Shown here: positions 304 to 64,000 of the stretch, one piece after another
Layout: every line of letters begins with the position of its first letter
Position numbering within the stretch: position 1 is the first letter of the stretch
Origin: a phage
Direction: 5' to 3' (one strand)
DNA length: 64,000 nucleotides
Sequence record: PZ445432.1
Notes under the pieces: model-generated
The model's database searches: none
The model's input: the letters and a program-made list of their open reading frames with translations, nothing else
What the model was told of the DNA's origin: nothing
Position numbers and translations under genes: made by a program

Positions 304-333
304 TCCTCGAATTTATGTATATATTATACTAGA
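304..333 (-). promoter_or_regulatory. sigma70-like early promoter (approximate)
   Basis: Reverse complement reads TTGCTA-like -35, about 17 nt spacer, TATAAT, then the ATAAATTCGAGGAG leader shared by other cassettes in the window. Confidence 0.4.
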
Positions 334-435
334 TTTCGAGAGAATTTAGCAACTAAAATTTTTATTTTTCTGCTTCGGACTTTCTTATCAATCCGAAACT
401 TTCTCTCTCAAATTTATGTGTATATTATACATCAT

Positions 436-1788: not shown

Positions 1789-2282
1789 AATTTTATTCTA
1801 AGTCTAGGAATTTCAGGCTCCTCTTGATGGACTTGATAAATAACAGGGCTATTATTTACCAGAATATAGCTTATATAAGCTGGAACATAGGATAATACAA
1901 ATGGATAAGGGACTTTAGCCACATAGCATTGGTATTTTCCATTATAAATTCTAGCTGAATGCAAAACTTTAGAGGTGACAACATCATAAAACGTAGTTTT
2001 CTTCCAATTAATAAGATTTCCATCAGAATCTATAAACTGGTTACGCTTTGACCCAACTAATTGAGACAACATTGATATTCTACCCCTAATAGGATAGAGC
2101 TTGTATGGTAATTCTTTCCGTTTCTCAAATAGAATAAGCCTACGTTGAGAAAACGTGCCAGGCAACTTCCTGTTATCTAGCACATATTTATTATATCTTG
2201 TTGTAATTACGGAATAATCACCTTCTTGCTCAATTGATACAAACGCCCGTAACGCATAGACGGGCAATTTGAAATTAAGCAC
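1785..2282 (-). CDS. hypothetical protein
   Basis: 165-aa ORF whose start overlaps the polymerase stop and whose stop overlaps the helicase start; no recognisable motif. Confidence 0.5.
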   Translation of the reverse strand: MLNFKLPVYALRAFVSIEQEGDYSVITTRYNKYVLDNRKLPGTFSQRRLILFEKRKELPYKLYPIRGRISMLSQLVGSKRNQFIDSDGNLINWKKTTFYDVVTSKVLHSARIYNGKYQCYVAKVPYPFVLSYVPAYISYILVNNSPVIYQVHQEEPEIPRLRIKL

Positions 2283-4842: not shown

Positions 4843-4903
4843 ATTTAATCTCCTCTTGGTAAGTAAGTATAACTTCAGTGTTTCTTCTCTAACTTACCAA
4901 TAT

Positions 4904-4933
4904 ATTATACCAAATCTTTAAGCGATTCAGCAA
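4904..4933 (-). promoter_or_regulatory. sigma70-like promoter upstream of the DNA polymerase gene
   Basis: Reverse complement gives TTGCTG, 18 nt, TATAAT; lies inside the 3' end of the primase ORF. Confidence 0.45.
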
Positions 4934-5795
4934 CTAAAATTTCAATACGTTTTGCTAACATATCAATTTCATCTTTGTTTAAATCACCTGGATCCTTGCC
5001 TTCTGGCAGAAGAAAGTTAGCCACTACAGGTGTTAAACGCGTTTTTGTACGAATTAGCTTGGCCAATGCTTGTGCAGCTTTATTACCAGAAGCATCATTA
5101 TCTAGTAAGATAACAACAACTTTTACACCGGCAATAATATAAGGACTGAACTTATCTGCAATGTTATCCGAAGTAAACTGATGGGTACCAAAGCAGCAAG
5201 AAGCATAGTCTATACCATTATCCTCTAGGTTCAGCATATCAAAGATGCCTTCAACTAGAATAAGAACTGGAGTATTATATCGTACAGGAAAAATTGGCGG
5301 TGAAACTTGTTTTGGTTTTACTAAGTATTTAGGAGGGGCAGAACTGTTTATAGAACGACCCAAAAATAGGATATTGCGTCCAACAGCATCTGTGATTGGG
5401 AATACAATTCTGCCTTCCCAGCTCTCTTGGTGTTGGAAAGCAAAATATTTCTTCAAGGTCTTAGAACTGATACCTCGGAAATCACCTTCGAAAAGGCAGG
5501 CAGACTCAGGTATTGCAAGATTCATAGATCCATTTCTAATTTCTGAAATCTTTTTTCGTACCTGTGATAGTCTTGGGGACTGTCGGTACTGAGCCTCATT
5601 AAAATAATGGTAAATGCTCGGTATACCTTTACCGAAGCCACAACTCAAGCAGTGCATGACCCCTGACTCGGGGTCAATACGTAGACTTGGATGTTTATCA
5701 TCATGTTCAGGATTCAGGCAGCATATAAGAATATCCCCGCCTGTATCCTTGTACTCAATTCCTTTTAGATCAAGTAGTTCTGTTATTCTACTCAT
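4905..5795 (-). CDS. DNA primase (CHC2 zinc finger plus TOPRIM)
   Basis: CCLNPEHDDKHPSLRIDPESGVMHCLSCGFGKG zinc finger, then a TOPRIM-like acidic region (VEGIFD ... LLDNDASG). Confidence 0.85.
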   Translation of the reverse strand: MSRITELLDLKGIEYKDTGGDILICCLNPEHDDKHPSLRIDPESGVMHCLSCGFGKGIPSIYHYFNEAQYRQSPRLSQVRKKISEIRNGSMNLAIPESACLFEGDFRGISSKTLKKYFAFQHQESWEGRIVFPITDAVGRNILFLGRSINSSAPPKYLVKPKQVSPPIFPVRYNTPVLILVEGIFDMLNLEDNGIDYASCCFGTHQFTSDNIADKFSPYIIAGVKVVVILLDNDASGNKAAQALAKLIRTKTRLTPVVANFLLPEGKDPGDLNKDEIDMLAKRIEILVAESLKDLV

Positions 5796-7258
5796 ATATC
5801 GCTGGCCTGTTCACCTGTTGAATTTTCAGTTTTATCTTTCTTAGCACGTTTAGATTGAGCTGGCTTATCCTTTTCAATAGGGATAATGAACTCAGCTTCC
5901 ATTTGAGATATATCTTCCATTGCTAGGTTGGTAGTGTTATCCATCCGCAGAGTTTCCCAGTTCATCTTAGGCATAAACTTCACGCTACCAGAAGAACGGG
6001 TCTTAACGAAGTCAAACATAATAGCACCTTGACCATTATCAGCTTTTGCAGCATTAAGATTAGCAGCCATGTCTGCGGAATCAAGAATCCCCTTTGACAT
6101 ACGTGTTCTACCATCTTGATCGATCTGGTAAGGAGCTACGCCAGCCACGTTATGTTTCTGGCAGATAGATTTGAAAGACGAGCTAACAACCATCTGTTCT
6201 TTCCAGTCATACATATCAATGGTTTTAGAATCTGGAAGTCGGGTTTGGTTAATATAGTCAAGTAAAGCTACTGTAACCTTATCCCCATATCTAGCAACTA
6301 ATTTATTTAACTCTACGTCAACTGTTGTAATAGACAGCTCAGGGTCATAAACAATAATCATAGGAGTATGTAGCTCATATCCTTCTATTAGCTTACTTTC
6401 CATATCGTAGAAATCACTCATCTTAGCCATTGTGTACTGTTTAACGAAGTTATCGAAAAGCTCTTCACCACCATTAAACATTCTAGCTCTAGTTCTGGCT
6501 AATCTCAACAGAGCTGCACCTTCTAGAGTATTATTACGCATTGCTAATGCTGATACACCAGCTAACATGGCTAGATTACGTCTAAATACTTCATGTTCTT
6601 TCATCTCAATTGAGAAGTATGGAGCAATATCCCCATTCAAATATTGCTGAACCTGTATGTTTGAACAGATAATGGATTTACCAGTACCACGCCAACCACC
6701 AAGCAGTAACGTTTCTGTGCGAGCTAAACCAATTTGAGCGTCGAACTCATTACAAATACCAAGAGCGATTAAATTCAGTTTGGTATCTTCTTCTCTCTGG
6801 AAAATACGCATGTTATCTGCGTTGAATACTTTCCCAGTATTCGTTACTTTCTCTTCTAATTTTAAGTGAAGGGAGGCAACTCGGTTAAGAATTTCTCCCT
6901 GATCCAGCATTGTTAAATCTTGAAGCACGTCTGTTTCTAGAAGCTTCAGGAATAAATCCTGTGTATACTCGGCCTCTAGGACTTCAAGTGCCTGTTCCAT
7001 GCTAACTTCTGGAATTTGAGTGTTAGCTAAAACGACTAGAGCTTGAGAAAGGCGGGCGTTCCTATTAGCCTCAAGCATCAGTGCGTCAATGGACGGCATT
7101 GTGTTATATTTTTTATAATAATTCTGGACGGCTTGGTAAATTGAGGAGAAAGCGTCATTAAAATGATCTTTATGCAGTTTTGAGAATGTTTCCAATGCTA
7201 TTTGCTTCTGTTCGGAAGCTAGAAGCATCTTCAACACTACAGCTTGCACGTTAAACAT
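5792..7258 (-). CDS. DnaB-like replicative helicase / RecA-fold ATPase
   Basis: 488-aa ORF with Walker A GGWRGTGKS; translationally coupled to the primase ORF. Confidence 0.65.
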   Translation of the reverse strand: MFNVQAVVLKMLLASEQKQIALETFSKLHKDHFNDAFSSIYQAVQNYYKKYNTMPSIDALMLEANRNARLSQALVVLANTQIPEVSMEQALEVLEAEYTQDLFLKLLETDVLQDLTMLDQGEILNRVASLHLKLEEKVTNTGKVFNADNMRIFQREEDTKLNLIALGICNEFDAQIGLARTETLLLGGWRGTGKSIICSNIQVQQYLNGDIAPYFSIEMKEHEVFRRNLAMLAGVSALAMRNNTLEGAALLRLARTRARMFNGGEELFDNFVKQYTMAKMSDFYDMESKLIEGYELHTPMIIVYDPELSITTVDVELNKLVARYGDKVTVALLDYINQTRLPDSKTIDMYDWKEQMVVSSSFKSICQKHNVAGVAPYQIDQDGRTRMSKGILDSADMAANLNAAKADNGQGAIMFDFVKTRSSGSVKFMPKMNWETLRMDNTTNLAMEDISQMEAEFIIPIEKDKPAQSKRAKKDKTENSTGEQASDI

Positions 7259-7832
7259 TATTTAGCAACTCCTCTGTAAAGTTATCCGCTATATTCTGCG
7301 GTTTAACCCTCTCTATATCTAGAGCATCTAGGGCTGCGAAATCTCCGTACAAGGCTAAAAGCAGCTTATCTCTATACCACAGAGCTTCTCCTAGAGTTTT
7401 TAGGGTTTTTCTAAATACTTTGGAGTTTTTAGATATGGTTACTTTAAATGTGTTATTTTTTGTTACTTCTATGTTACGAATGCCTAGCTTGTTACCTATA
7501 AAGCTATTAGCGGAATTTTGAGAGGAAGTAACTTCACGTAAGTTATTCCAAGTATTATCAGTTTTAATTCTATTTTTATGATCAACCTTGTCAGGGATTT
7601 CTCCTTCCATATATAGAAAGGCCCACCTATGCGCTCCCATAGATTTTTGTATACCTGACTCTAAGGTTATCTTTATGTAAATATAGCCTGATGAATGCAT
7701 ATAGCCTGCAGGTTTGTTAGCGTGCTTAGCATTGAACGCAGGATTATTTTCTCTAGGTAGCCAGTAGAAATTTCCAGTATCAGGCTCATATCTTAATAAT
7801 GTTTTAAGATACTGCTGGGTAATCTCCCCCAT
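7251..7832 (-). CDS. HNH homing endonuclease
   Basis: VDHKNRIKTDNTWNNLREVTSSQNS HNH motif; one of four paralogs (also 26080, 33761, 54277). Confidence 0.8.
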   Translation of the reverse strand: MGEITQQYLKTLLRYEPDTGNFYWLPRENNPAFNAKHANKPAGYMHSSGYIYIKITLESGIQKSMGAHRWAFLYMEGEIPDKVDHKNRIKTDNTWNNLREVTSSQNSANSFIGNKLGIRNIEVTKNNTFKVTISKNSKVFRKTLKTLGEALWYRDKLLLALYGDFAALDALDIERVKPQNIADNFTEELLNNV

Positions 7833-7844
7833 TATGTAGCCTTC

Positions 7845-7878
7845 TAATATACAAGAAAGGAGAACCGAAGTTCTCCTT
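7845..7878 (-). terminator. rho-independent terminator (minus strand)
   Basis: GGAGAAC-CGAA-GTTCTCC hairpin followed by a T-run on the minus strand, downstream of the 7892-8659 ORF. Confidence 0.5.
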
Positions 7879-7891
7879 ATCTGCCTTCTAA

Positions 7892-8659
7892 TTATTCAGC
7901 AGCCGCAGCTTTTGCATCCAGTTTAGCACGCTTAGCGGCACCATCATAGTCCTTAGCAACCAGACCACGACGAGACAGCATAGATTTAACACCGCGCTCA
8001 GACTTACCAGTTTTCTCAGCGATCTCAGCAACAGTCATGTTAACCAGATCCAGACCTTCTAACAGATCTTCACGAGTTTTAGCACTTGAGGTTTCCTGTA
8101 CCGGCATAGCAGCGATACGACCTTCACGAAGCAGACTCAGAGCTTTACCACGGATCTGTTTGATATTACGACCGAAGTGAGCAGCGATAGCTTCAATAGT
8201 AGCCCCAGCAACAACCTGATTAACAAAGTCAGTTTCTTCATCCGGAGTGAAGGAACGAACAGCAGCAGTTTTTTCGGTTGGTTTAACAGAAGCGGTCATT
8301 TCCAGACTCAGGATCTTACCCTGTACCTGTTTAGCACCGAACTGACCACCAGCCACAGCAGCAGCGATTTCAGCATAAGTATACTGACCAGCATGAGCGT
8401 TCAGGAAATCAACCAGTTCAGCTTCCTGCTCAGGAGTCCACGGGGATTTCTGTACTTCGTTAGCTTTCTGTACTTCAAAACCTTCTTTACGCAGTTTAGA
8501 GCCAACAGAGCGAGCAGTAACATCTTTGCCAGTTTCAGCAGCCAGTTCAGCGGCGATAGCAGCTACTTGTTCTTGAGAGATTACATCAACACCCAGAGCA
8601 GTGGCTTTTGCTTTCAGAGACTCGGTTACACCTTCTACGTTCCAGTTCAGTTTAGACAT
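7892..8659 (-). CDS. putative abundant DNA-binding protein (T5 D5-like)
   Basis: 255-aa Ala/Lys/Glu-rich ORF with host-optimal codon bias; assignment is by position and composition only. Confidence 0.45.
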   Translation of the reverse strand: MSKLNWNVEGVTESLKAKATALGVDVISQEQVAAIAAELAAETGKDVTARSVGSKLRKEGFEVQKANEVQKSPWTPEQEAELVDFLNAHAGQYTYAEIAAAVAGGQFGAKQVQGKILSLEMTASVKPTEKTAAVRSFTPDEETDFVNQVVAGATIEAIAAHFGRNIKQIRGKALSLLREGRIAAMPVQETSSAKTREDLLEGLDLVNMTVAEIAEKTGKSERGVKSMLSRRGLVAKDYDGAAKRAKLDAKAAAAE

Positions 8660-9434
8660 TATTATTTTTCTCCAATAGTTCTTTAATCGACAGGATTTCT
8701 ATCCCATTCGTTTCGGCTTTCTTATAAGATGAGGAAGAACGCTTCGATTCATCCTCACAGATTAGGTATTTGACGTCTTTGGTAACGGATTTCTTAACCG
8801 TATATCCTAGACCTTCTAAATAGTTTGTTGCATCCGTTCTATTTGCAAAATCTTGCAAAGATCCGGTAATACATACCGCGATTCCATTTGGCTGGGCAGC
8901 TAATTCATCCGTAGTGATAATATTAGCTTTAGTGCCCTTAATACCAGTTGAGAATTTCCACGGTAGTTCGATAACATCCTTGCCTTGTGGGGAATTTAGC
9001 CAGGCTTTGTAATTTTCTCCAGCCTTGCCGTCAGCCTTCACATCATGGAAGCTAGTGCAATTTTGGGATAATTTCTTTGCTGCAACCTCTCCAATTAGAG
9101 GGATTCCTAAAGAACCGAGAACTGAACCAAAGTCAATGTCTCCGCGAACTTTAGTATTTAATTCGCTAGTTAACTTAGCGGCAACCTTGCTACCCACGGC
9201 TCTAACCAAATCTTCTTCGGTTAGGTAAAATAGTTCTGAAATCTTCGTCAGCTCCAGCTTCTCAATAGTTTTTGGGCCAAAGCCCTTTAACTTCATTTTT
9301 GAACAGAAGTTCTCAATTAACTTGCTTGATTGCGCTGGACAGTTGGACTTATTACGACAGAATAATTGTCCGTTGACAAGATCTAGCTTAGAACCACAAG
9401 AGGGACATTGTGTTGGAATTTCGATTTTCATCAA
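8652..9434 (-). CDS. ligB: NAD-dependent DNA ligase, C-terminal subunit (Zn finger, HhH, BRCT)
   Basis: CPSCGS ... C ... CPAQ zinc-finger pattern typical of LigA, HhH-like region, BRCT-like AVCITGSL. Confidence 0.8.
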   Translation of the reverse strand: MMKIEIPTQCPSCGSKLDLVNGQLFCRNKSNCPAQSSKLIENFCSKMKLKGFGPKTIEKLELTKISELFYLTEEDLVRAVGSKVAAKLTSELNTKVRGDIDFGSVLGSLGIPLIGEVAAKKLSQNCTSFHDVKADGKAGENYKAWLNSPQGKDVIELPWKFSTGIKGTKANIITTDELAAQPNGIAVCITGSLQDFANRTDATNYLEGLGYTVKKSVTKDVKYLICEDESKRSSSSYKKAETNGIEILSIKELLEKNNNV

Positions 9435-9461
9435 ATTTCTTCCTTATCAATTTATATAAAT

Positions 9462-9490
9462 ATTATAGCAAGTATTTAAGCATTTAGCAA
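9462..9490 (-). promoter_or_regulatory. sigma70-like promoter between the two ligase ORFs
   Basis: Reverse complement gives TTGCTA, 17 nt, TATAAT, followed by the leader cassette. Confidence 0.5.
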
Positions 9491-9633
9491 CTACAATTTT
9501 AATTAACTTTGCTTACCCTCGCCATAACTTTCTATCCCTCAACTGAATGATAATAGTATATACCTAAGCGGCGAAAATGTCAATAACCACTTTATAATTC
9601 CGATATGGTAGATGGGTAGCAAAGGGTTATGTA

Positions 9634-10605
9634 TTAATCGTATACTCGCTCTACTATGCACGGGATTACACCACCAGCACGAATCACTCGAATCTGGCAA
9701 CCGATCTCTAGATCGAGAGAGTTAATATAATCAACGTTATTAAGAGTTGCTTTAACAATTGTAGCATCATCAATAATTACCGGTTCAAAATAACCAACTG
9801 GAGTTACTTTACCCGAAGCCCCCACCTGCCATTCAACTTTAGTAAGAGTTGTAATCTCGCCTTCTTCATCCTCTTTAATAGCGAATGCTCCACGAGGGAA
9901 TTTATTAGTCCAGCCTTCACGGAAGAATTTGTTGTTATCATTAATACGAACAACTTTACCGTCCGTCGGAATCCATTTAAAGAAGGAACGCACATTAACA
10001 ACTGTTAAGAAGTTCTCATTCTCCAGCCAAAGCATATCTTTTAAGTATGATTCTGTAATACCTACAGATTCAGCAGAACACTGGATACCATATGCAACGA
10101 AGATTAAACCACCTTCCCCAATGCGTTGTACGAAATCATCACTATCTTTGAGGTTAATAGCACCAGAGGCAAAGTTACGTTTATTTTCTACTTCTTTTGT
10201 AATTAGAACTTCACCAGTTATTTGAGTAGGTACTTTTTGGGAAATCTTTTTAGGAATATTCAGCAATCTTACGTTGCTTGTGACATCATTCCCTAGAATA
10301 CCGTTACCACGAGTTAGTGCTTGAACAAATTCGCCGTTAATATACAGCAGAGAAATTGCACAACCATCTAACTTATCGGTTTCCACCTGACCTAAAGGAT
10401 TGAATGGTGGTTTATCACCACGGTTATAGTAAACTTTCTGTAAAGAATACATACGATATAGATGTGGAATATCACCCTTAGGCCCGATCTCTTCCTCTAA
10501 TGGGAAGCGTTTTACCAGACGATCATATTCTTCATCAGAGATTAAAGACATTCCCTGGTAATATGCTTCTTGGCAACGTTTAATAAAGTCTTTTACATTA
10601 GTCAT
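9634..10605 (-). CDS. ligA: NAD-dependent DNA ligase, N-terminal adenylation/OB subunit
   Basis: KLDG adenylation motif (KLDGCAISLLY) and an OB-fold-like C-terminus (IRVIRAGGVIP). Confidence 0.8.
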   Translation of the reverse strand: MTNVKDFIKRCQEAYYQGMSLISDEEYDRLVKRFPLEEEIGPKGDIPHLYRMYSLQKVYYNRGDKPPFNPLGQVETDKLDGCAISLLYINGEFVQALTRGNGILGNDVTSNVRLLNIPKKISQKVPTQITGEVLITKEVENKRNFASGAINLKDSDDFVQRIGEGGLIFVAYGIQCSAESVGITESYLKDMLWLENENFLTVVNVRSFFKWIPTDGKVVRINDNNKFFREGWTNKFPRGAFAIKEDEEGEITTLTKVEWQVGASGKVTPVGYFEPVIIDDATIVKATLNNVDYINSLDLEIGCQIRVIRAGGVIPCIVERVYD

Positions 10606-10878: not shown

Positions 10879-10908
10879 TTTGCAACCCTCTCATTAATTT
10901 ATATAAAT

Positions 10909-10937
10909 ATTATATAACAAAACTGAGTTGAAAGCAA
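10909..10937 (-). promoter_or_regulatory. sigma70-like promoter
   Basis: Reverse complement gives TTGCTT, 17 nt, TATAAT, then the ATAAATTAATGAGAGG leader. Confidence 0.5.
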
Positions 10938-10964
10938 ATACATTTATAAAGAAAAAGCCAAGAA

Positions 10965-11273
10965 CTAGGCATTCTTGGCTTTGAGTTCTTCAGCTCGTTT
11001 CTGTACTTCATGTAAAACCTCAGATTCGCTAAGAATCTGTGTAAACGCATAGAAAAGCTGTGATGTTGTTTCTAGGGTGTAAGGAAAAGAGAAGCCAGAT
11101 TTCGTTGGAAACCATTCATCATTAATATCAAGAAGCCAGTAACGAATACCCATGTATAGATTCCCACGAAATTCAGATACTGTTAATCTTACTTGTTCCC
11201 CCTCCCTCTCCCAAAGTATGATGGACTGGTCATCAACGTGTCCTTCATAGTTTTGATTTACCTGTTCGCTCAT
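10965..11273 (-). CDS. hypothetical protein
   Basis: 102-aa ORF; a terminator-like hairpin overlaps its 3' end. Confidence 0.45.
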   Translation of the reverse strand: MSEQVNQNYEGHVDDQSIILWEREGEQVRLTVSEFRGNLYMGIRYWLLDINDEWFPTKSGFSFPYTLETTSQLFYAFTQILSESEVLHEVQKRAEELKAKNA

Positions 11274-13431: not shown

Positions 13432-16195
13432 CTAGCTCTGACATTGCTTCTTCTGCCATAGCCTTCTCTTCCTCTGTCATGAATTTGAAAGGAATTGGCA
13501 TACACTCGATTTTACAATAGGTTCTGTACCAGTCTACGATATTCTCCGTGTTCATATCTTTACCAATACCCATCATACCAAGATACATTCTAGCATATTT
13601 TGGGTTAGCACTCTGGCCTGTTTTAAGGAAGAAATCCTTTTTCTTACCTTTTAGAGCTTCTATGAATGGTTTAATGGTTACATTTGAACACTTCTTAATG
13701 TCTTCCCAGAACATCTCGTGCATCTTATGAAAGAATGCAGCTCGATCATTTGGTTTATCTTTGATATATTGTTCAACATGCTCAACTGTTACATCTTTAA
13801 TAGACTCAAGATGATAATAGCGAACAATAAGTAGTTTAGCTTCATACGCATCAGCATGACGTGGAGCACAATAATCCGGAGTTGAATGTAGAATAGCTTT
13901 GATTCGCTCTTCTGTGTACTCTTTACCAGCACCTTCAATAGTTCCCCAGCTTTCACTGAAAATATCAATAGTTGCACCCTGATCAAGCAAGTAATAACGT
14001 AAAGTACTAGTATAGTTCCTAGATTCCAGCTCCCTGCGACGTGCGTATAATTGCTGTGCTAACTCCAGCCAACCCTCATCAATGTTATACTGTTCAGAAC
14101 CTGCGGAGAATCCACTCGTAGATTTATCAATAAAATAATAAATGTTCTGAGCGCCACGGTCGCGCCTGATTGCTTGGAAACGCATGTTTGGCGCTTGATT
14201 ACTGGTTCTAGTAATAACAAATACGTTATCAAAATAGTTGAAGTCAACTCCACTCGTTACGGATGGACTACATAATAAGCAATCAATTTGTTGATCAATT
14301 AGCTCATTAGTTGTGTAATCCAGAATACGTCTAATATCCACATCTGATGTGGAGTTTGAGTGGATTTCCTTAACTAACGCACCAGTATTACGACGTAGTG
14401 CCATGCCCTTCTCATTCAGCTCATCAGGGCCACAATCAGATACTAGAATAGATTTCTCACCCATCTCTAGAGAAGTCTGAAGTGCAACCCAAATACTGGA
14501 TTCATCGGGGAACTCATAAGCGTGAGCTTTTGACAGCATTTTACGGTGATGATTATAAAATGCTACTGGTTTATCGAACTCAATCAAAGAACCATATGCT
14601 TCAATTGTTTCAGCACTAATATCACCATCGGATAGTATAATGATTTTTGCAGTTGCAAGAATATCACGAAGAACCTGAATACACTCGCGACGTTGCTTAA
14701 CAACTGGGGCGAATAATAGGTCATTCATTACTGCATCACATTCATCGATAAAGATTGCATCAATTTGACCAATAAAACTCTTAAACTTATGTAAAGAGTG
14801 GATAGTTGTGGACATACGGTCAATAGCACCACGCTTAAAATTAAGCATATCTACAGACTTATCATATTGTCCTGCACTAAATTTCTTGGCATTTGAAGAC
14901 ACCAGTGCCCTAGTATTGGTAATTGCTAAGAAATTACCTTTAATAACTCCTGAATCTAACCAACGCACAACTGCCGTGGTTTTACCTGTACCTAGACTTG
15001 CTTTTACAAAAGTCATATAACCTTCTGGTGGTACAGTGTTTAATTTCAAGAAGTTATCAGTTTCTAGAGAATTAGTTTCTAATTTTTTAAGTGGAACACC
15101 TTTTAATACTTCTGGGATCTCACGCTTAGAGTTATTAACAAAGGCTTTTAATGCCTGTTTTCGACCGTTATTAAAATAATCTTGAATATTACGACTATTA
15201 TCTTTAGTTGCAATATACTCAGATAAAGCTGGGCGGATCTCCTTCTCTAGCCAACCAAAATCTACACCATCCTCTAACGCTCGGTGATATAGCTTTGGAA
15301 TAATACGTAGATATACACCATCCTCAGCCTCTTCTAACTCGCTAATGGTTTCTTCTACTTTATCAGAAGCAATCTTTTTGCCTTTAATTTGATCGAGTAA
15401 AGAGTAGAATTCCTCTTTAAACTCCCCTCTAGTTGTTTCATAGTCAACCAGATTATTAGGTAAATTTACTTTAGAACCCTTAACAAATACCAGACGTGAA
15501 GCACCCTCCGCTTTAAACGGATCAACTATACCATCAGTAAATAAAGGATCTGCAAAGTAATGGAGCTGTACGGAAGAGTAATAAGCTAAGTCGGCAATAT
15601 CAAAGCCATACTTTTGTCTACTACTTTCATTGATAGATGTAAATAAGAACTTGATCTGACCCTGTGTAACTTTAACATTAGATTCTAGTATTAAGTGCAT
15701 TCGGATACCTGGTTTTAGTCCAGCCGAAGACGATGCATGAGCAATAAACCCTGCATCAAGAGGAAACATATCCTCACTAATACTATTCAACATTCTAATA
15801 ATATGACGCGCCATGCCAACAAGATCAAACTTGTTACAACCTCCTGTATCTACAATACCATCCACGTCCATTGCAATTATATGACTTGGGTTAGATACAT
15901 TAAAGTTGTCCTTCTTACGCCGCACATTATTTTTAGGTGCAAGACATCGACCTCGTACCGCAACGATATGGGGGTCAGACGTTAAACGTCTCATAAGAGG
16001 GAGCATTTCTACTAGGGTTTGAGGATCAACTTCATCAATTACATCAAACTTGAAGGGCATTGAAGCTGGTTTACCTTCAGGATGCTTTGAGGAAAATCTT
16101 TTAGCAAAAAGATAATCTTCTGCTTTAACTTCTCGCCAATTGCCCGTGGCTAAATCGCGATGAAATCCTGCATGACCTTGTAGGATTGAGAACAC
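13406..16195 (-). CDS. large P-loop ATPase, putative replication-initiation/helicase-like protein
   Basis: Walker A ASLGTGKTT and Walker B FIDECD. Start set at a GTG preceded by AGGAG; the track ORF extends to 16393 and an internal ATG lies at 16060. Confidence 0.6.
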   Translation of the reverse strand: MFSILQGHAGFHRDLATGNWREVKAEDYLFAKRFSSKHPEGKPASMPFKFDVIDEVDPQTLVEMLPLMRRLTSDPHIVAVRGRCLAPKNNVRRKKDNFNVSNPSHIIAMDVDGIVDTGGCNKFDLVGMARHIIRMLNSISEDMFPLDAGFIAHASSSAGLKPGIRMHLILESNVKVTQGQIKFLFTSINESSRQKYGFDIADLAYYSSVQLHYFADPLFTDGIVDPFKAEGASRLVFVKGSKVNLPNNLVDYETTRGEFKEEFYSLLDQIKGKKIASDKVEETISELEEAEDGVYLRIIPKLYHRALEDGVDFGWLEKEIRPALSEYIATKDNSRNIQDYFNNGRKQALKAFVNNSKREIPEVLKGVPLKKLETNSLETDNFLKLNTVPPEGYMTFVKASLGTGKTTAVVRWLDSGVIKGNFLAITNTRALVSSNAKKFSAGQYDKSVDMLNFKRGAIDRMSTTIHSLHKFKSFIGQIDAIFIDECDAVMNDLLFAPVVKQRRECIQVLRDILATAKIIILSDGDISAETIEAYGSLIEFDKPVAFYNHHRKMLSKAHAYEFPDESSIWVALQTSLEMGEKSILVSDCGPDELNEKGMALRRNTGALVKEIHSNSTSDVDIRRILDYTTNELIDQQIDCLLCSPSVTSGVDFNYFDNVFVITRTSNQAPNMRFQAIRRDRGAQNIYYFIDKSTSGFSAGSEQYNIDEGWLELAQQLYARRRELESRNYTSTLRYYLLDQGATIDIFSESWGTIEGAGKEYTEERIKAILHSTPDYCAPRHADAYEAKLLIVRYYHLESIKDVTVEHVEQYIKDKPNDRAAFFHKMHEMFWEDIKKCSNVTIKPFIEALKGKKKDFFLKTGQSANPKYARMYLGMMGIGKDMNTENIVDWYRTYCKIECMPIPFKFMTEEEKAMAEEAMSELGARNDSEE

Positions 16196-53926: not shown

Positions 53927-54004
53927 GTAATTAAAAAATTCAGTTGCTTCAAGCCTTAAAATTCTGTATAATAAGTTCATAAATTAATGAGAGAGGAAAT
54001 TCTA

Positions 54005-58727: not shown

Positions 58728-59452
58728 TGAGTATTAAAAAGAATTTAGCAGAGATTATTAAATTAGCTAGAGCTTGTAATGGAAAATGTGTTTCTCAACT
58801 TAATGAACTAGAGGCACATGCAGTAGCGTTTTGTGCAGAGTTTTATCCTGCATATATTAACGCTAGTGGACAGCCGAAATATAATAAAGATGCAGAAGAA
58901 GTTACGTTAGCTCCTTCGTATATTAGTATACGTCGTCTGATTCAAACTGTTGACCCTAATATTAAAGGATTTTCAGCAGATTCATTCCATGTTTTTGCGG
59001 ATAAAGAACTCCCACATTTTAAAGAAGGAAGTGCAAAGACAGCCCTAGAATGTTATCCTAATATTTTGATGATTCCACCTAAGCAATGTAAGTATGATCA
59101 TCTTCCTAGACTTACAAAGAAAGTAGAACCACCTTATTCTTCTCTATCTGAATTAAAGCTAGGAATTGTATCTACACTTGCGCAGGTTCATCTAAGTATA
59201 GTTGACGACTCAACAACATCTAATCCAGTCTTAGATGCTGCACATTATGAAATTTTACGTGACCCTGAACAGGCTAGAAAAGTTGCGAAGTCTGTTAAGT
59301 TTGACATCTCAACAATTCTTGATACGATGCAAGATACGAGACCTAGAGGAAGTGTAGATTATTCTGCGCTAAATTCCGAGTCATCTTACCTAGCAACATT
59401 CCTTTTCATGGCATCGAAGGGAATCATACTCAAAGTCAATCACGATGTATAA
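58727..59452 (+). CDS. hypothetical protein
   Basis: 241-aa ORF; last plus-strand gene before the repeat-rich region. Confidence 0.45.
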   Translation: MSIKKNLAEIIKLARACNGKCVSQLNELEAHAVAFCAEFYPAYINASGQPKYNKDAEEVTLAPSYISIRRLIQTVDPNIKGFSADSFHVFADKELPHFKEGSAKTALECYPNILMIPPKQCKYDHLPRLTKKVEPPYSSLSELKLGIVSTLAQVHLSIVDDSTTSNPVLDAAHYEILRDPEQARKVAKSVKFDISTILDTMQDTRPRGSVDYSALNSESSYLATFLFMASKGIILKVNHDV

Positions 59453-59468
59453 ACGTTAACAAAATCTT

Positions 59469-59497
59469 CTTGACATTATTTGAGCTGTATGTTATAA
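59469..59497 (+). promoter_or_regulatory. consensus sigma70 promoter (TTGACA-17-TATAAT) facing the ORF-free repeat region
   Basis: Exact TTGACA at 59469-59474 and TATAAT at 59492-59497 with a 17-nt spacer. Confidence 0.6.
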
Positions 59498-59852
59498 TAA
59501 TCTCATAGATTAAAAACATCAACTTGTTTTTACCTCTAGGCCGTAGATTTACATCATTCCTCGTAGGAAAACACTTGATGACGGTTCTGTTCGCAGGTTC
59601 TCGTCAATTGTTCTTCCTCCCCGAGACTCAGGAGGATGTATCAAATCGCACGCGCCTAGAGGGGCTAACTCTCATGAAATGGGGGTATATTAACTTTTAA
59701 ATAACTGATAAATATTTAAAGGCAATATCTGTGTTCAAGATGATACACCTGTTGCCGCTCATCTGCTAGGATGGCACAACACTTTCTTCTAGACTCCTAA
59801 GTTTCTAGGAAATTGATAAGCACAAATTCTAGAGATCGCACAAAAATATTCA

Positions 59853-60631
59853 TCGGATTTGCACATATTCTAGGAAATTGATAAGTACAAAAATATTCAT
59901 CGGATTTGCACATATTCTAGGGCAGTTTCTCTCAAACGTTACACATACTAGGCGGTTAATATAGGGCGGTTATAGGGAGGGCGGTTATTTCTAGGAGACA
60001 TTTTTTGAAAACACATTTCTGGATTTTACTGTCGGATTTGCACACTGCATTTCTAGAAATTTATGGTCGGATTTGCACAAACGCCTAAGTTTTTAGGAAC
60101 ATATAATCTCTTGAAAATGGCAGCATTATTTCGGGCCGAAGGCCCATGATTGCCTGAGTTTTTAGAGCCACAGGAATTTTCACTTGTCAAGCTATTTTGC
60201 CCCATTTTGCTAATAAAATTTTACTTTTTCTGCACCTATCTCAAATTTCCCCAAATTATCTCAACTCTTCCCCAAAACCCCGCAAATCAGGTGCTCCGCA
60301 CCAATCCTGCGCCCACACCATTCTAGCCTCCCAAATTTCTCTCGCTCTCTCATCTTCTCCTCAAACCTATACAATCACACACCCTCTCATCGAAGTCACA
60401 AAAATTTCATCGGATTCGCACAAATAAACCCATGTCGGATTTGCACATATTCTAGCTAATTCCACAGGATTGATGCGCAGCATCGGATTGCTGGAGTTTT
60501 TGGGAAAATTCGTCGTCGGATTCGCACATCACAAAAGTTTTTAGGGTCGGATTTGCACACTACCAAAAATTGTCGGATTCGCACATACACGCCCGCACGT
60601 AACACCCGTGGAGCAATGTCGGATTTGCACA
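59853..60631. repeat. dispersed array of about 10 copies of TCGGATT(T/C)GCACA
   Basis: Copies start near 59853, 59900, 60032, 60067, 60410, 60435, 60516, 60547, 60573 and 60619, all in the same orientation, often followed by ATATTCTAG. Confidence 0.7.
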
Positions 60632-60636
60632 AAAGC

Positions 60637-60654
60637 GCAGGGCAATTGCCCTGC
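60637..60654. repeat. 18-bp perfect palindrome GCAGGGCAATTGCCCTGC
   Basis: Read directly; could act as an operator or form a hairpin. Confidence 0.6.
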
Positions 60655-60661
60655 GACTTTG

Positions 60662-60680
60662 AATGAGAATCATTATCATT
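60662..60680. repeat. 19-bp near-palindrome AATGAGAATCATTATCATT (left boundary element)
   Basis: Near-identical palindrome recurs at 61216-61234, so the pair brackets the iteron/DnaA/LexA block. Confidence 0.55.
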
Positions 60681-60891
60681 TAAGAAGTGGAATGCAAATG
60701 ATAATTATTCTCATTTAAGAAGTGGAATGATTCTCATTTAATAAGTGGAATGCAAATGATAATTATTCTCATTTAAGAAGTGGAATGAGAACTATTCAAG
60801 AAGTGAAACGATTCTCATTAAAGAAGCGAAACGATTCTCATCCTAGAAAGGGAATGCAAATGATAATGATTCTCATTTAAAAACGGAAGTG
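60676..60891. repeat. iteron-like direct repeats (about 8 copies of a 21-bp unit TCTCATTTAAGAAGTGGAATG)
   Basis: Copies start near 60676, 60709, 60732, 60767, 60792, 60813, 60836 and 60871; some are separated by CAAATGATAATTAT spacers. Confidence 0.7.
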
Positions 60892-60910
60892 AGAAACACT
60901 GTTATTTAAG

Positions 60911-60992
60911 TTATCCACAGACTTATTAACAGCACGATTTGACTTGACAGAATCCTAGCCATTTTGAGGCGTTATCCACAGACTTATCCACA
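60911..60992. promoter_or_regulatory. three consensus DnaA boxes (TTATCCACA)
   Basis: Exact TTATCCACA at 60911-60919, 60972-60980 and 60984-60992, all in the same orientation. Confidence 0.65.
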
Positions 60993-61000
60993 GCTTATTC

Positions 61001-61020
61001 TACTGTATAAATATACAGTA
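61001..61020. promoter_or_regulatory. LexA/SOS-box-like palindrome TACTGTATAAATATACAGTA
   Basis: Matches CTGT-N8-ACAG with flanking TA; 20-bp palindrome immediately after the DnaA boxes. Confidence 0.55.
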
Positions 61021-61215
61021 TTCCTACGCAGTGAATAATTCTAATATAGGCCTAAAACGTCCTGAATCGCATTCTAGCGCGTTTTATTTTGGCGGGGATA
61101 CTAAAACAAGGGCAAAACTGGAGGAGGCTTAGAAATTAGTTAGCTCGCTAACGATCACACAAGGCGACACGTAACACCCTAATCATTAGCAGGCTAACCA
61201 TCGCGGGCGCGGTCA

Positions 61216-61234
61216 AATGAGAATCATTCTCATT
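61216..61234. repeat. 19-bp perfect palindrome AATGAGAATCATTCTCATT (right boundary element)
   Basis: Partner of the 60662-60680 element. Confidence 0.55.
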
Positions 61235-61275
61235 TGAGGATTGGGGGCACTTCCTGATAATTGCCCCCGTGATTA

Positions 61276-61470
61276 TTAGTCCGGTAATTGATGCGTGATC
61301 TTCTCCTCTTCCCCGTAGGAATCGACTAAATGCTGATAATAACCATCATGATCATAAATGACTTTATCATATTCGCCCAGCTCGACCGCTTGCCGGTTTT
61401 CCGGAGTATCGGGCACATAAAAAACGTCAACCATTGTGGTAGTTTTGGTCACAATAATTTTATCGCTCAT
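61276..61470 (-). CDS. hypothetical protein
   Basis: 64-aa acidic ORF; first of a minus-strand block with a shared upstream motif. Confidence 0.4.
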   Translation of the reverse strand: MSDKIIVTKTTTMVDVFYVPDTPENRQAVELGEYDKVIYDHDGYYQHLVDSYGEEEKITHQLPD

Positions 61471-61485
61471 AATAACGCCCCGTTA

Positions 61486-61767
61486 TTAGTTGACTATCTC
61501 AAAGATAGCGTTCTCAAGTGTCGCCCTTAGGATCCCATCGCGCCCTACTACGGAATACTTGAGATCAGGTATTTTGTAACGCTCAATTGCTTTGAGTAAT
61601 TGATCTTTTTGGGCTTTATATTTTTGCCCTTCTCGCGCTATCGTGTCGCCTTCGGCTTTAATGCAAATCAGTGTAACCATAATAATCCCCCTAGTAAATA
61701 TATTTTTGCCAATAGCGGCGAACGTTATCGCCACCAGCGGAATCATTAGCTGCCTTACTATTACCAA
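61486..61767 (-). CDS. hypothetical protein
   Basis: 93-aa ORF. Confidence 0.4.
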   Translation of the reverse strand: MVIVRQLMIPLVAITFAAIGKNIFTRGIIMVTLICIKAEGDTIAREGQKYKAQKDQLLKAIERYKIPDLKYSVVGRDGILRATLENAIFEIVN

Positions 61768-61962
61768 CGAAAATATATAATCTCATTAGTATTATTTTCC
61801 CCGCATTAATTTATACATAACTAACATCCCGCAAAACTGACCTAAGATAGTGCAGACAACAAGGGATAACACAATATTGCCTATGGTGTTATAAGTAACC
61901 ACACCAACAATAAGGGATAATGCATACCCTAGCAGGGCAATATAAACAGCCATATTATTTAC

Positions 61963-62313
61963 CTATTTTCGAAACGCTGTTTCAATACTATCAGCCGTGG
62001 ATTGAATATACGCGCCTTTCATTATCAGGCGCTCGGTGCATACTTTGCGAAAAATATTAATAAAATCATCTTCATTTTCTGCGATTAACGCCTCCCCCAT
62101 GACCTGAATATCACACGATGCAAAGGTCAAAAATTGAAACGCTAGTTCACGGGCGACGACCGCATTAATTTTATAATGCGCCTTTCCATCGTAAATATTA
62201 ACAACGCCCTTATATTCAGGCGAAAGCTGATTTAAGTAGTTTGCTAATAATCCCGGGCGGCAATTAGTAACAAAGCGATTCCCTTCATAAATTACCATTT
62301 TATAACCTCCCAA
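61963..62313 (-). CDS. hypothetical protein
   Basis: 116-aa ORF. Confidence 0.4.
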   Translation of the reverse strand: MGGYKMVIYEGNRFVTNCRPGLLANYLNQLSPEYKGVVNIYDGKAHYKINAVVARELAFQFLTFASCDIQVMGEALIAENEDDFINIFRKVCTERLIMKGAYIQSTADSIETAFRK

Positions 62314-62421
62314 TCAGATAGCCAGATAAAAGCATAAAAATCCCCAGCGAACTAGGGTCATTCTTAAACAAGGTGGCGGTAAAACCGCCAACCATTGCAA
62401 GGATAACAACAATAACGCTTT

Positions 62422-62634
62422 TCATAGTACCCCACGAAACGCAGCGTAAAAGGTGGCAAAGTGTCTAACCGTTTCAGCTATCACGTTGCCGCGCTTATCG
62501 AATTTTTTCTCGGTAACACGAAAGGCGTTTTTATTCCGTGCTACATATTCGATTTTACAATCTTCCCGCTCGAACGTGTTAACGTCCACCAGCTTAAAGC
62601 CTTTGGAACGAGCAAGGGAAACATTACGAATCAT
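62422..62634 (-). CDS. hypothetical protein
   Basis: 70-aa ORF. Confidence 0.4.
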   Translation of the reverse strand: MIRNVSLARSKGFKLVDVNTFEREDCKIEYVARNKNAFRVTEKKFDKRGNVIAETVRHFATFYAAFRGVL

Positions 62635-62636
62635 TT

Positions 62637-62825
62637 TTATTCTCCTTTACTATTCATGCAGCCCAGCAGATAAGAAAATACAGCGACACCCGCGCCAATA
62701 ATAACCATAGGTTTAGTATTTGCTAAACTGCAATAAGAATCCTGAATACCATAAGCGGTGGCGAAAAGAGTCAAAATAGCGCCCAAGATACCTGCTAAAA
62801 AAGCCCGAAAAATAACCATTTTCAT
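62637..62825 (-). CDS. hypothetical small membrane protein
   Basis: 62-aa ORF with two hydrophobic helices; RBS AGGAGA. Confidence 0.4.
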   Translation of the reverse strand: MKMVIFRAFLAGILGAILTLFATAYGIQDSYCSLANTKPMVIIGAGVAVFSYLLGCMNSKGE

Positions 62826-62865
62826 TCTCCTAGTTAGTGGGGCGAAAGTAGCGCCCCGTTATTAC

Positions 62866-63096
62866 TTACATTAAAACGATTTTGGCGGCTTGTTTTTTGG
62901 TGCAATGTTCTGCTTTCAGGGTATCCAGCAAAAAGCCCGCCGTTTGCTGATCGATTTGATCATTATCATAAAGCGCCTGAATGGTAGTGTAAGTTTTAGC
63001 AATGCCGTATTCTTGCACCATTTCTTGAATGATCCAGCGATTTGATACCCAGCCTTTTCCAGTGAAAAGATGACTAGCAGAAGAATAAGCAACCAT
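62866..63096 (-). CDS. hypothetical protein
   Basis: 76-aa ORF. Confidence 0.4.
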   Translation of the reverse strand: MVAYSSASHLFTGKGWVSNRWIIQEMVQEYGIAKTYTTIQALYDNDQIDQQTAGFLLDTLKAEHCTKKQAAKIVLM

Positions 63097-63214
63097 TATA
63101 AGCCTCCAAAATTTTTTGGGAAATTTTCAACCGTCCTCAAACGGTGTAAGGGCATTATAACAAAAAGGCCGCCATAATCGGCGACCTTTACAAAACTTTA
63201 CATTAGATTATTTA

Positions 63215-63769
63215 TTACTCGTTTTCGGTGTTAGTGGTAAAAGTAGAAATATCGATACCTTTTACCATTTCATCAATCATCTCAGCGATGTTAAAACTTT
63301 GCACCATTTCCAACATTGCCGCTTCCATAGCCGCTCCTGCTACCGCTTTCGCTTTCTGGTTATTCGGGGCGTACTGGTCAACCGCTACACTCAGCAGGTT
63401 AGCGATCACTACTCGACCGATCGGCGTATCAATATAGCCTTTAATCATAAATGGCGCTTTTTTAGCCGCTACTTTCGTGATTTGAGTTAGTGCAATTTTA
63501 CCCGCTTCCAGTTTTGCAGCATTTACAACAGCGGATTTATTAGCGGCAACGATGTTAGCGATCTTAGTCATGGTATTTTTTCCTTTGTTTTCAGTGGTTT
63601 GAGTGTTAACGCTTTGAGTGTTAGAATTTACAGCATGTTTTTCTATATTGTCAATAGGCTGATCTTCATCTTTCCAGAAAGAAAAGCCCGCGCTTTCTAT
63701 ATCCCCATCGTATACGTATGGGTATACTTCCGACGGTAGCAAAAAATTGCCATCATCATCAAAGGCCAT
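63215..63769 (-). CDS. hypothetical protein
   Basis: 184-aa ORF, acidic N-terminus and Ala-rich C-terminus. Confidence 0.45.
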   Translation of the reverse strand: MAFDDDGNFLLPSEVYPYVYDGDIESAGFSFWKDEDQPIDNIEKHAVNSNTQSVNTQTTENKGKNTMTKIANIVAANKSAVVNAAKLEAGKIALTQITKVAAKKAPFMIKGYIDTPIGRVVIANLLSVAVDQYAPNNQKAKAVAGAAMEAAMLEMVQSFNIAEMIDEMVKGIDISTFTTNTENE

Positions 63770-64000
63770 TACAGCCGCCAGACGATACCCGTCACCGATT
63801 GACCGATTCCAGCCAACTGATAAATAACGCCAAAATGAATCAAGAAAGTTTTCAACGTCATAAAGATCCTTATCATAAGGCTCATAATTTTCTATTGAAA
63901 AAACTTCTAAGCCCGCCCCAGCATCATAGGCTTTTACTGTGCTACCTTTTACGATTATGAAATCAGTGTCCGGCCCCCTACTAGTAAGCAGGTGATTATC

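Follow-up and report, generated by a model that had tools for sequence, protein, structure and literature searches.

Gene content and position of the block

The window analysed here is the whole stretch of 64,000 nt from record PZ445432.1, which represents Escherichia phage HildyBeyeler (Bas33), a T5-like Tequintavirus, and shows 100% identity to MZ501074.1. Within it we examined the block at positions 61276-63769. An earlier note made from the sequence had reported a flip of gene orientation at this site, and indeed every annotated gene from 61276 to the window end lies on the minus strand. The note had counted seven ORFs; the block has nine annotated genes, and the last of the ORFs counted (63215-63769) is the 3′ part of bas33_0177. 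The genes, with one unannotated ORF, are the following.

61276..61470, minus: bas33_0169, 64 aa, T5.017 homologue (phrog_6973, E 2e-41)
61486..61746, minus: bas33_0170, 86 aa as annotated, T5.016 homologue
61691..61786, minus: unannotated conserved 31-aa ORF, MRLYIFVGNSKAANDSAGGDNVRRYWQKYIY, overlapping the annotated 5′ end of bas33_0170 out of frame
61792..61953, minus: bas33_0171, 53 aa, small and hydrophobic, without T5 counterpart, matching no family
61963..62298, minus: bas33_0172, 111 aa, homologue of the NC_005859 gene tagged T5.015 (phrog_4379, E 7.5e-62)
62300..62425, minus: bas33_0173, 41 aa, small and hydrophobic (phrog_19184)
62422..62634, minus: bas33_0174, 70 aa, homologue of the NC_005859 gene tagged T5.014 (phrog_4227, E 8e-50)
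62637..62825, minus: bas33_0175, T5.013 homologue with two transmembrane segments
62866..63096, minus: bas33_0176, 76 aa, T5.012 homologue (phrog_5145)
63215..64000 (running on to 64207), minus: bas33_0177, 330 aa, DUF7566, T5.011 homologue

Eight of the nine block proteins match T5-like PHROG families or DUF7566. In a Pfam scan of the block proteins DUF7566, found in the 011 homologue, was the sole family matched, and no mobility genes were detected among them by PHROG and Pfam searches. Positions 59000-64000 had no match in Rfam at E≤1.

As in T5 (NC_005859; Davison 2020 preprint; Annor et al. 2026 preprint), the block occupies the site between inverted repeats with DnaA boxes and adjoins the injection stop signal, and the homologues of T5.011-T5.017 follow in the same order and on the same strand. 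They diverge from the arm with A2, A1 and dmp and are transcribed in the direction away from it. Beyond these homologues the block holds two small membrane ORFs (bas33_0171 and bas33_0173), which are extra relative to T5, and the 31-aa ORF; unlike T5, Bas33 is devoid of hegG. The syntenic T5 segment, with a DNA identity of 85-93%, is 6098-9144 of the T5 left terminal repeat, which falls inside the T5 repeat (1-10219). The block also maps into the SPC35 feature annotated as “left TR; FST DNA”, and the inner boundary of the terminal repeat projects to about 60150-60180 of the window. The stretch 61276-63769 is therefore the pre-early (first-step-transfer) right arm, adjoining the injection stop signal and lying within the direct terminal repeat. 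Bas33 RNA-seq, proteomics and twofold read coverage identify the region as pre-early and as terminal repeat (PMC13250531). When Bas33 infection was blocked after first-step transfer, transcription and translation were restricted to the pre-early region, and in the presence of daunorubicin transcripts and proteins came only from the 17 pre-early genes (PMC13250531). The region is already known in this sense, through genetic dissection in T5 and through RNA-seq and proteomic profiling of Bas33.

T5 genes 011, 013 and 015 are toxic, T5.011 in E. coli and T5.013, which is also lytic, when expressed alone. A T5 deletion from hegG to 017 is viable in a phage already lacking the accessory genes of the dmp arm. 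Gene 011 is one of seven pre-early genes present in at least 60% of Demerecviridae genomes, and each gene of the 011-017 set except 016 occurs in more than 75% of Tequintavirus genomes; T5.016 is found in less than 15% of Demerecviridae.

Two features border the block on its inner side.

60887..61018, no strand assigned: inner arm of a 132-nt inverted repeat with paired DnaA boxes, homologue of T5 IRD'spacerIRC'
61001-61020: LexA-like box, overlapping the 3′ end of the inner arm

The partner arm lies beyond the window, at window-equivalent positions 64474-64605. In L001 the two arms (10888-11019 and 14475-14606) are 83% complementary, spaced by 3455 nt, and bracket the block; the T5 counterpart of this repeat was described by Davison.

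Promoters and terminator of the operon

The window contains 23 copies of the early promoter cassette, TTGCTW-N17/18-TATAAT, where 0.19 would be expected. None of the 23 copies lies in the block, the last being at 53944-53972, which agrees with the earlier statement that the block genes do not use it. The suggestion of separate regulation also held: the block is of the pre-early temporal class and has sigma-70 promoters of its own in place of the early type, as had already been published, including by Bas33 RNA-seq (PMC13250531). Promoter-like sites inside the block show no excess (19 vs. 13.0±3.8 in shuffles). The promoter of the 011 homologue, TTGCCT-18-TATCAT, lies just beyond the window at window-equivalent positions of about 64239-64268; in T5 the 011 promoter is annotated and experimentally characterised. 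Between the 011 and 012 homologues we found a compact set of signals.

63130..63189, minus: conserved 011-012 intergenic control region
63164-63189, minus: intrinsic terminator after the 011 homologue, stem-loop with U-tract, folding z -4.0, annotated in T5
63154-63162, minus: extended -10 element TGTTATAAT, overlapping the intrinsic terminator
63130-63145, minus: short hairpin, with two alternative self-complementary versions in relatives

The extended -10 reads TGTTATAAT in 24 of 25 sequences and TGCTATAAT in one. This arrangement suggests that host RNA polymerase would start at the sigma-70 promoter upstream of the 011 homologue and would then meet the intrinsic terminator after 011. Transcription would probably restart at the predicted extended -10 promoter and continue from 012 through 017.

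A stop-codon/G-run motif at gene ends

A sequence motif shared upstream of two genes had been noted before, and copies do lie 5′ of the starts at 61470 and 62825/62819. Of these alternatives the ATG at 62819, 6 nt after AGGAGA, is probably the true start of bas33_0175; the PHROG profile match of this protein begins at residue 3. Rather than an upstream promoter or operator, the motif is a gene-end or intercistronic cassette in which TAATAA stop codons are followed by a G-run. It occurs three times, each time on the coding strand, and closes the 012, 016 and 017 homologues. The G-run forms the 5′ arm of a conserved hairpin after 012 and 017 and the ribosome-binding site before 017.

62839..62864, minus: motif copy A, TAATAAC followed by the hairpin GGGGCG-CTACTTT-CGCCCC, between the 012 and 013 homologues
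61470..61488, minus: motif copy B, TAATAACGGGGCGTTATTA(TG), with tandem TAA TAA stops of the 016 homologue
61243..61278, minus: motif copy C, operon-end hairpin, TAATAATCAC-GGGGGCA-loop-TGCCCCC, -16.2 kcal/mol

The core sequences are ACGCCCCGTTATTA at 61475-61488 and GCGCCCCGTTATTA at 62851-62864. A search allowing up to 2 mismatches gave three matches vs. 0.21 expected, and the pattern TAATAA-N0-4-GGGG has only three sites in 74 kb, all of them on the minus strand, at gene ends and inside the block. Exact matches to the motif in IMG/VR were all on T5-like contigs.

The GGGGCG...CGCCCC hairpin of copy A, also noted before, is real (62839-62857, -11.7 kcal/mol), though with a weak folding z of -1.4. 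In five relatives its stem is swapped for GGGGGATA/TATCCCCC, with compensatory changes at two fully paired positions; this covariation stems from one or two stem replacements within a group of close relatives. The G-run of copy B is the Shine-Dalgarno sequence of the 017 homologue, 7 nt before the ATG, and in most relatives it reads GGAG or GGGAG irrespective of the upstream gene; the copy also contains a perfect 8+3+8 AU-rich palindrome (-5.7 kcal/mol). Copy C starts with the in-frame tandem TAA TAA stops of the 017 homologue, and the folding z of its hairpin is also weak (-1.85). At the same site two relatives (L057 and L058) carry TAATAATAACGGGGCG...GCCCCGCTTTTTCT, a canonical intrinsic terminator with a U-tract. 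A classical terminator reading of the hairpins after 012 and 017 in Bas33 was rejected, as neither has a U-tract; the sequences on their 3′ sides are ACUAACUAGG and AAUCCUCAAA. A promoter reading was rejected as well, since the promoter-like sites of the block are not above shuffles and none is convincingly at the motif. No promoter-like hexamer pair was found at the copy after 012, and the copy before 017 has an overlapping 9-of-12 match, which is at chance level. The terminator after 011 and motif copies A and B are common to T5 and Bas33. The operon ends differ: Bas33 has a GGGGGCA hairpin without a U-tract, whereas T5 has the terminator CGGGGA...TCCCCGTTTTT.

Transcript levels at the motif copies

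We compared the motif positions with published Bas33 RNA-seq values, which are gene-level TPM from a single 20-min point without drug, well past the pre-early phase; the reads are deposited under ENA PRJEB101990. Upstream of hairpin A, bas33_0177 stands at 3540 and bas33_0176 at 2363. Between hairpin A and motif B the values are 537 (bas33_0175), 594 (bas33_0174), 1.6 (bas33_0173), ~342 (bas33_0172), 594 (bas33_0171) and 430 (bas33_0170), and after motif B bas33_0169 reaches ~46. Transcript levels thus drop 4.4-fold at hairpin A and 9.4-fold at motif B, the two largest steps along the operon. Between these steps levels remain within twofold, apart from the value for bas33_0173, which looks like an artefact. 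The motif sites would then act as partial terminators or as sites of RNA processing or stability that lower expression stepwise along the operon, and such graded expression would hold toxic downstream products low. The 4-fold and 9-fold steps suggest in this way a means of keeping the toxic pre-early products of the phage in check. Differential decay, mapping effects or short-gene effects could also produce the steps.

It is possible, if rather doubtful, that the motif is a reused junction of stop codon and ribosome-binding site left by cassette recombination, that it has no role in termination or stability, and that the steps have another cause. The G-run before the 017 homologue is plainly a Shine-Dalgarno sequence, the folding z-scores are weak, and T5.016 is present or absent precisely between two copies of GG(R)G..TTATTATG, as expected from short-repeat cassette exchange. 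Yet the hairpin after 012 persists although its stem sequence has been replaced entirely, some relatives have a canonical terminator at the copy after 017, and transcript levels make their two largest steps at motif copies and vary no more than twofold in between. We favour an attenuating role for the motif, which at the same time marks junctions where accessory genes such as T5.016 come and go.

We regard it as very unlikely that the motif works at the DNA level, as an operator or promoter element through which a regulator (the A2 dimer, A1 or a host factor) exerts shared control of the downstream genes. The perfect 8+3+8 palindrome of copy B has the form typical for dimer binding sites, A2 is a dimeric DNA-binding protein, A1 is required for pre-early shut-off, and transcripts step down at copies A and B. 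However, neither copy has a -35/-10 pair, and in many relatives the palindrome is missing or degraded so that only GGAG-N7-ATG is retained. Copy A keeps its stem by means of a different self-complementary sequence, and therefore structure is favoured over sequence recognition.

Composition and codon usage

A shift in composition had been proposed for the block, and it concerns CpG but not GC content. GC alone is unremarkable (0.407 vs. 0.388 elsewhere, z 1.4; 10% of equal-sized windows are as high). CpG, on the other hand, is a true outlier in sliding windows: 53 per kb in the block vs. 28 elsewhere, with an observed/expected ratio of 1.31 vs. 0.75±0.087 (z 6.4) and a maximum of 0.91 in other windows of the same size. 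In an acquired island or moron the atypical composition would be expected to stop at the element, but the CpG and codon shift spans the whole pre-early coding region of ~9 kb, with sharp ends. It thereby takes in the family hallmark genes A1, A2 and dmp, of which A1 and A2 are essential, and it is also seen in distant relatives from Serratia and Vibrio.

In pre-early genes the CpG observed/expected ratio is 1.28-1.39 at codon positions 2-3 and 1.09-1.37 at positions 3-1. The corresponding values are 0.55 and 0.70 for early genes (n=105) and 1.22 and 1.08 for E. coli K-12 genes (n=42). The codon-usage comparison proposed earlier separated pre-early from early genes clearly: the correlation of synonymous codon usage with E. 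coli was r 0.50-0.53 for the former and 0.13 for the latter, and the two classes differ in per-gene composition with p 4e-8 (Mann-Whitney). Synonymous positions carry the shift, and its direction is toward E. coli usage. We infer that the pre-early class as a whole is marked by an excess of CpG and of C/G-ending codons.

Separate acquisition of the block, the other proposal of the earlier note, was not supported, because the shift is region-wide, synonymous toward E. coli and present in Serratia and Vibrio, and because hegG keeps the phage composition. That the block is a horizontally acquired module of foreign composition is extremely unlikely. Its CpG and GC3 are strongly unlike the rest of the genome, the 132-nt inverted repeat brackets it, and DUF7566 aside no block protein matched Pfam. 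Gene content of the right arm varies among relatives, and no other part of the terminal repeat differs as much between T5-like phages, with many insertions and deletions in this arm. But the other arm (A1, A2, dmp) has the same composition, and A1 is present in 227/227 Demerecviridae surveyed. The PHROG and Pfam searches showed no mobility genes, and the one real insertion in the T5 pre-early region, the homing endonuclease gene hegG, retains early-type composition.

The likeliest reason for the CpG and C/G-ending codons would be that pre-early genes must be translated by host tRNAs alone. All annotated phage tRNA genes (~23) lie in the early region and enter only with second-step DNA. The tRNA explanation was borne out only partly by codon usage: among codons matched by phage tRNAs, AGA, GGA, ACA, GCA, CTA and AAG are clearly rarer in pre-early genes, while AGC, TGC, ATC and TCC are not. 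CpG is in excess across codon boundaries too, which indicates an additional effect at the level of dinucleotides.

A regional mutational or recombinational bias of the repeat, which is present in two copies per genome and could undergo GC-biased gene conversion, is an unlikely source of the CpG/GC3 excess in place of translational selection. The zone of high CpG and the coding part of the repeat coincide, and tRNA matching alone is insufficient where CpG is raised across codon boundaries. Still, the non-coding ~1.1 kb of the repeat is just intermediate (CpG observed/expected ~0.9-1.1), hegG remains early-type inside the T5 repeat, and codon preferences shift specifically to those of E. coli (r 0.5 vs. 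0.13). Taken jointly, the identity of the right arm, the transcription model, the role of the motif and the translational reason for the composition make up an account that we consider very probable.

Our literature search found no paper on a host-like codon split of first-injected DNA in T5-like phages. The host-like codon and CpG usage and the stop-codon/hairpin motif at mRNA step-downs are apparently undescribed, if modest, details. As a tentative extension, with rather less than an even chance of being right, first-injected DNA across the family may track the host in codon and dinucleotide usage, because it is read by an unmodified host without phage tRNAs, and may meter toxic host-takeover proteins by stop-codon/hairpin attenuators. 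Two-step injection would in that case amount to a natural experiment in which codon adaptation is tied to the order in which the genome physically enters the cell. The sharp, family-wide switch to host-like codon and CpG usage offers a simple marker, readable from the sequence alone, for recognising pre-early regions and the boundaries of terminal repeats in new Demerecviridae genomes, and a clean test of whether phage tRNA genes release later genes from host codon constraints.

Comparison with known systems and minor observations

In bacterial operons, intercistronic stem-loops and partial terminators grade expression, e.g., the REP hairpin between malE and malF. The Bas33 block resembles these in having a GC-rich hairpin between cistrons, with upstream RNA several-fold above downstream RNA. 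Its motif differs in sequence, which is unrelated to REP and without an Rfam match, and includes stop codons and, in one copy, a ribosome-binding site.

The promoter-early stem-loop (PeSL) cassettes of T4-type phages are repeated intergenic elements that bound shuffled genes. Similarly, the Bas33 motif is a short repeated stem-loop element at gene boundaries in a hypervariable, early-expressed region, and T5.016 is gained or lost exactly between repeats. In contrast to PeSL, it has no associated promoter and only three copies, all in one operon.

In tRNA-carrying phages, the phage tRNA genes match the codon usage of subsets of phage genes. Bas33, with ~23 tRNA genes, likewise shows codon usage split by temporal class within one genome. 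Here, however, the split follows a physical barrier, as the host-like class belongs to the DNA that goes in first, ahead of the tRNA genes.

RefSeq and PHROGs label the gene tagged T5.014 as an endonuclease nicking abasic sites made by host Ung, in conflict with papers that give the nickase the name 015. A PDB sequence search with the 70-aa homologue bas33_0174 returned no meaningful match. The true start of bas33_0170 is probably the ATG at 61680, with GGGGG just before it, which gives a protein of 64 aa. The amino-acid sequence of the 31-aa ORF at 61691..61786 is conserved in T5 and 9 further relatives, some of them without T5.016.

Identity and position of the block

The window corresponds to record positions 37524–101523, and its 61000–64000 segment was 100% identical to MZ501074.1 (Escherichia phage HildyBeyeler, Bas33; Tequintavirus), with 431 related records, nearly all of them T5-like phages of Salmonella and Escherichia. 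The block under study (61276–63769) aligned at 85–93% identity to T5 (NC_005859) 6098–9144, located in the 10,219-bp left terminal repeat and comprising genes T5.011–T5.017, after which comes the annotated injection stop signal. The match to Salmonella phage SPC35 lies within a feature annotated as 'left TR; comprises first-step-transfer (FST) DNA'. The stretch initially described as a DnaA/LexA module is the injection-stop region, and projection from T5 and SPC35 would place the inner end of the terminal repeat at about 60150–60180. The block as such was already known, and the analysis adds two modest, testable points: the composition signature and the gene-end cassette.

In T5, 17 pre-early genes lie on the first-step-transfer DNA, arranged as two divergent arms; of the three promoters characterized experimentally, one is upstream of 011. 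When expressed on its own, each of 011, 013 (lytic, with two membrane segments) and 015 (Ung-dependent nickase) is toxic. Deletion of hegG to 017, in a background already devoid of the dmp-arm accessory genes, gives viable phage with smaller plaques. Long-read depth in Bas33 doubles over the region and changes sharply at its edges, as a terminal repeat should show; RNA-seq and proteomics of Bas33 blocked after first-step transfer detected expression only from pre-early genes (PMC13250531). The suggestion of separate regulation is correct and already published.

Every gene from 61276 to the window end lies on the minus strand, as first noticed. Nine are annotated rather than seven, and the last ORF, taken to end at 63769, is really the 3′ portion of a gene of 330 aa that continues to 64207.

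Composition of the pre-early region

The earlier note considered the block richer in both GC and CpG. The latter makes it a true outlier (observed/expected 1.31 vs. 0.75 ± 0.087 elsewhere, z 6.4; unequalled by other windows of the same size), whereas GC is only mildly raised (0.407 vs. 0.388, z 1.4). We found no evidence for separate acquisition: the high-CpG zone extends beyond the block, over about 9 kb from the 017 homologue through dmp, with abrupt edges on both sides. The observation is confirmed and its interpretation half right.

Within coding sequence the CpG excess is synonymous, and Arg CGN codons do not contribute to it. Observed/expected values at codon positions 2–3 were 1.28–1.39 for pre-early genes, 0.55 for 105 early genes and 1.22 for 42 E. 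coli K-12 genes; across codon boundaries they were 1.09–1.37, 0.70 and 1.08, respectively. GC3 was 0.40 in the pre-early genes vs. 0.31, and synonymous codon usage correlated with that of E. coli at r 0.50–0.53 in both pre-early arms vs. 0.13 in early genes (per-gene Mann-Whitney test, p 4e-8). T5 showed the same pattern, except for the homing endonuclease gene hegG inside its pre-early region (5411–5929 of the T5 sequence L003), which is early-type (GC3 0.23, CpG at positions 2–3 0.39) and unlike all its neighbours, which fits a recent insertion. Near A1 of Serratia phage Kamaji, GC rises to 0.53 and CpG to 1.05–1.40, with mostly lower flanks (0.46–1.13); Vibrio phage Thalassa shows the same regional rise, weaker.

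The annotated tRNA genes are all located in the early region, and therefore none is in the cell during the pre-early phase. Since the shift is also synonymous and E. coli-like, our preferred explanation is selection for translation that relies only on the tRNA pool of the host. The match of pre-early codon usage to individual phage tRNAs was mixed, and CpG is in excess across codon boundaries too, which suggests that an effect at the dinucleotide level contributes. Recombination bias of the terminal repeat is another possible source of the shift. In the literature covered, which is partial for older T5 work, no published description of this signature was found.

Promoters and transcription unit

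T5-like early promoters were searched as TTGCTW-N17/18-TATAAT (consensus from PMC3326045). The window holds 23 sites vs. 0.19 expected, none beyond 53972, in agreement with the reported absence of this cassette from the block. One of the 23 carries what we take to be the core sequence of the T5 N25 promoter. Just beyond the window end is the 011 promoter, TTGCCT-18-TATCAT, preceded by an A-rich stretch; the gene is followed by a strong terminator:

63164–63189, minus strand: intrinsic terminator 3′ of the 011 homologue (z −4.0, U-tract present)

The terminator tail overlaps an extended −10 element, TGTTATAAT, and 3′ of this element lies a short hairpin for which relatives show one or the other of two self-complementary versions. 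Across 25 phages, the whole 011–012 intergenic stretch (about 100 nt) is better conserved than the genes on either side. Transcription would thus end after the 011 homologue and re-initiate at a putative promoter serving 012–017.

A perfect sigma-70 consensus (TTGACA, 17 nt, TG-extended TATAAT) is found at 59470–59498 on the plus strand, directly after the last early gene; it faces the injection-stop region, which is non-coding, and the terminal repeat, and is oriented antisense to the block.

The gene-end motif

The shared motif pointed out in the block, TAATAACGGGGCG on the coding strand, was recovered at 61475–61488 and, with one change, at 62851–62864, the second copy indeed forming part of a GGGGCG/CGCCCC hairpin. 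With up to two mismatches there were 3 matches vs. 0.21 expected. In 74 kb of this genome the loose form, TAATAA-N0-4-GGGG, has just three occurrences:

62839–62864, minus strand: copy A, after the 012 stop codon; G-run forms the 5′ hairpin arm
61470–61488, minus strand: copy B, after the 016 homologue and its tandem stops; G-run serves as ribosome-binding site for 017
61243–61278, minus strand: copy C, after the 017 homologue and its tandem TAA TAA stops

T5 carries both motif copies, and exact matches in IMG/VR were confined to T5-like contigs. In five relatives the copy A stem is replaced by GGGGGATA/TATCCCCC, two fully paired positions show compensatory changes, and 80% of alignment cells are paired vs. 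33–62% with the partner columns slid. At the copy C site, two more distant relatives (L057, L058) have a canonical terminator, CGGGGC...GCCCCGCTTTTTCT. The copy B G-run reads GGAG or GGGAG in most relatives, 7–8 nt before the ATG, regardless of the upstream gene. Among the relatives compared, T5.016 is either present or missing precisely between two copies of GG(R)G..TTATTATG, so the cassette is a recombination-junction marker as well. None of the motif copies has convincing promoter-like hexamers beside it, and Rfam gave no match.

Transcript levels along the operon

Mean TPM of Bas33 genes at 20 min without drug (Dataset S1 of PMC13250531), in order of transcription

bas33_0177 (011): 3540
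bas33_0176 (012): 2363; copy A follows
bas33_0175 (013): 537
bas33_0174: 594
bas33_0173 (41-aa ORF, 62300–62425): 1.6
bas33_0172: about 342
bas33_0171: 594
bas33_0170 (016): 430; copy B follows
bas33_0169 (017): about 46

Levels drop 4.4-fold at copy A and 9.4-fold at copy B, and between the copies stay within twofold, bas33_0173 excepted; its value (neighbours 340–590) is probably a counting artefact of a short gene overlapping its neighbour. As a correlation from one late time point at gene resolution, the steps hint at partial termination, or at processing with differential decay, either of which they fit.

Gene annotation and flanking repeats

An unannotated 31-aa ORF, MRLYIFVGNSKAANDSAGGDNVRRYWQKYIY (61691–61786, minus strand), is conserved in amino acid sequence in T5 and nine further relatives, including phages without T5.016. 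Since this ORF and the annotated 5′ end of bas33_0170 overlap in different frames, the probable start of bas33_0170 is the ATG at 61680. The annotated ATG of bas33_0175 (62825, minus strand) directly adjoins the AGGAGA ribosome-binding site, and comparison with T5 and with the PHROG profile points to the second ATG, at 62819, as the start codon. RefSeq and PHROGs place the label 'Ung-dependent abasic-site nickase' on a 70-aa protein (tag T5.014; here 62422–62634, minus strand). Both papers that name the nickase call it 015, which by NC_005859 tags is a 114-aa protein (here 61963–62298, minus strand); one of the two assignments, RefSeq/PHROGs or the papers, is off by one gene.

The block is flanked by a 132-nt inverted repeat, with arms at 60887–61018 and window-equivalent 64474–64605 (83% complementary). 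Davison (2020), in analysing these repeats, discusses DnaA boxes and never mentions LexA. A near-consensus LexA (SOS) box, TACTGTATAAATATACAGTA, at 61001–61020 (plus strand) overlaps the end of one arm. A second LexA-like copy, ending in G instead of TA, lies inside the partner arm (about 14480–14499 of L001, the Bas33 stretch reaching past the window), and the more distant relative L057 has the same LexA-like 20-mer.
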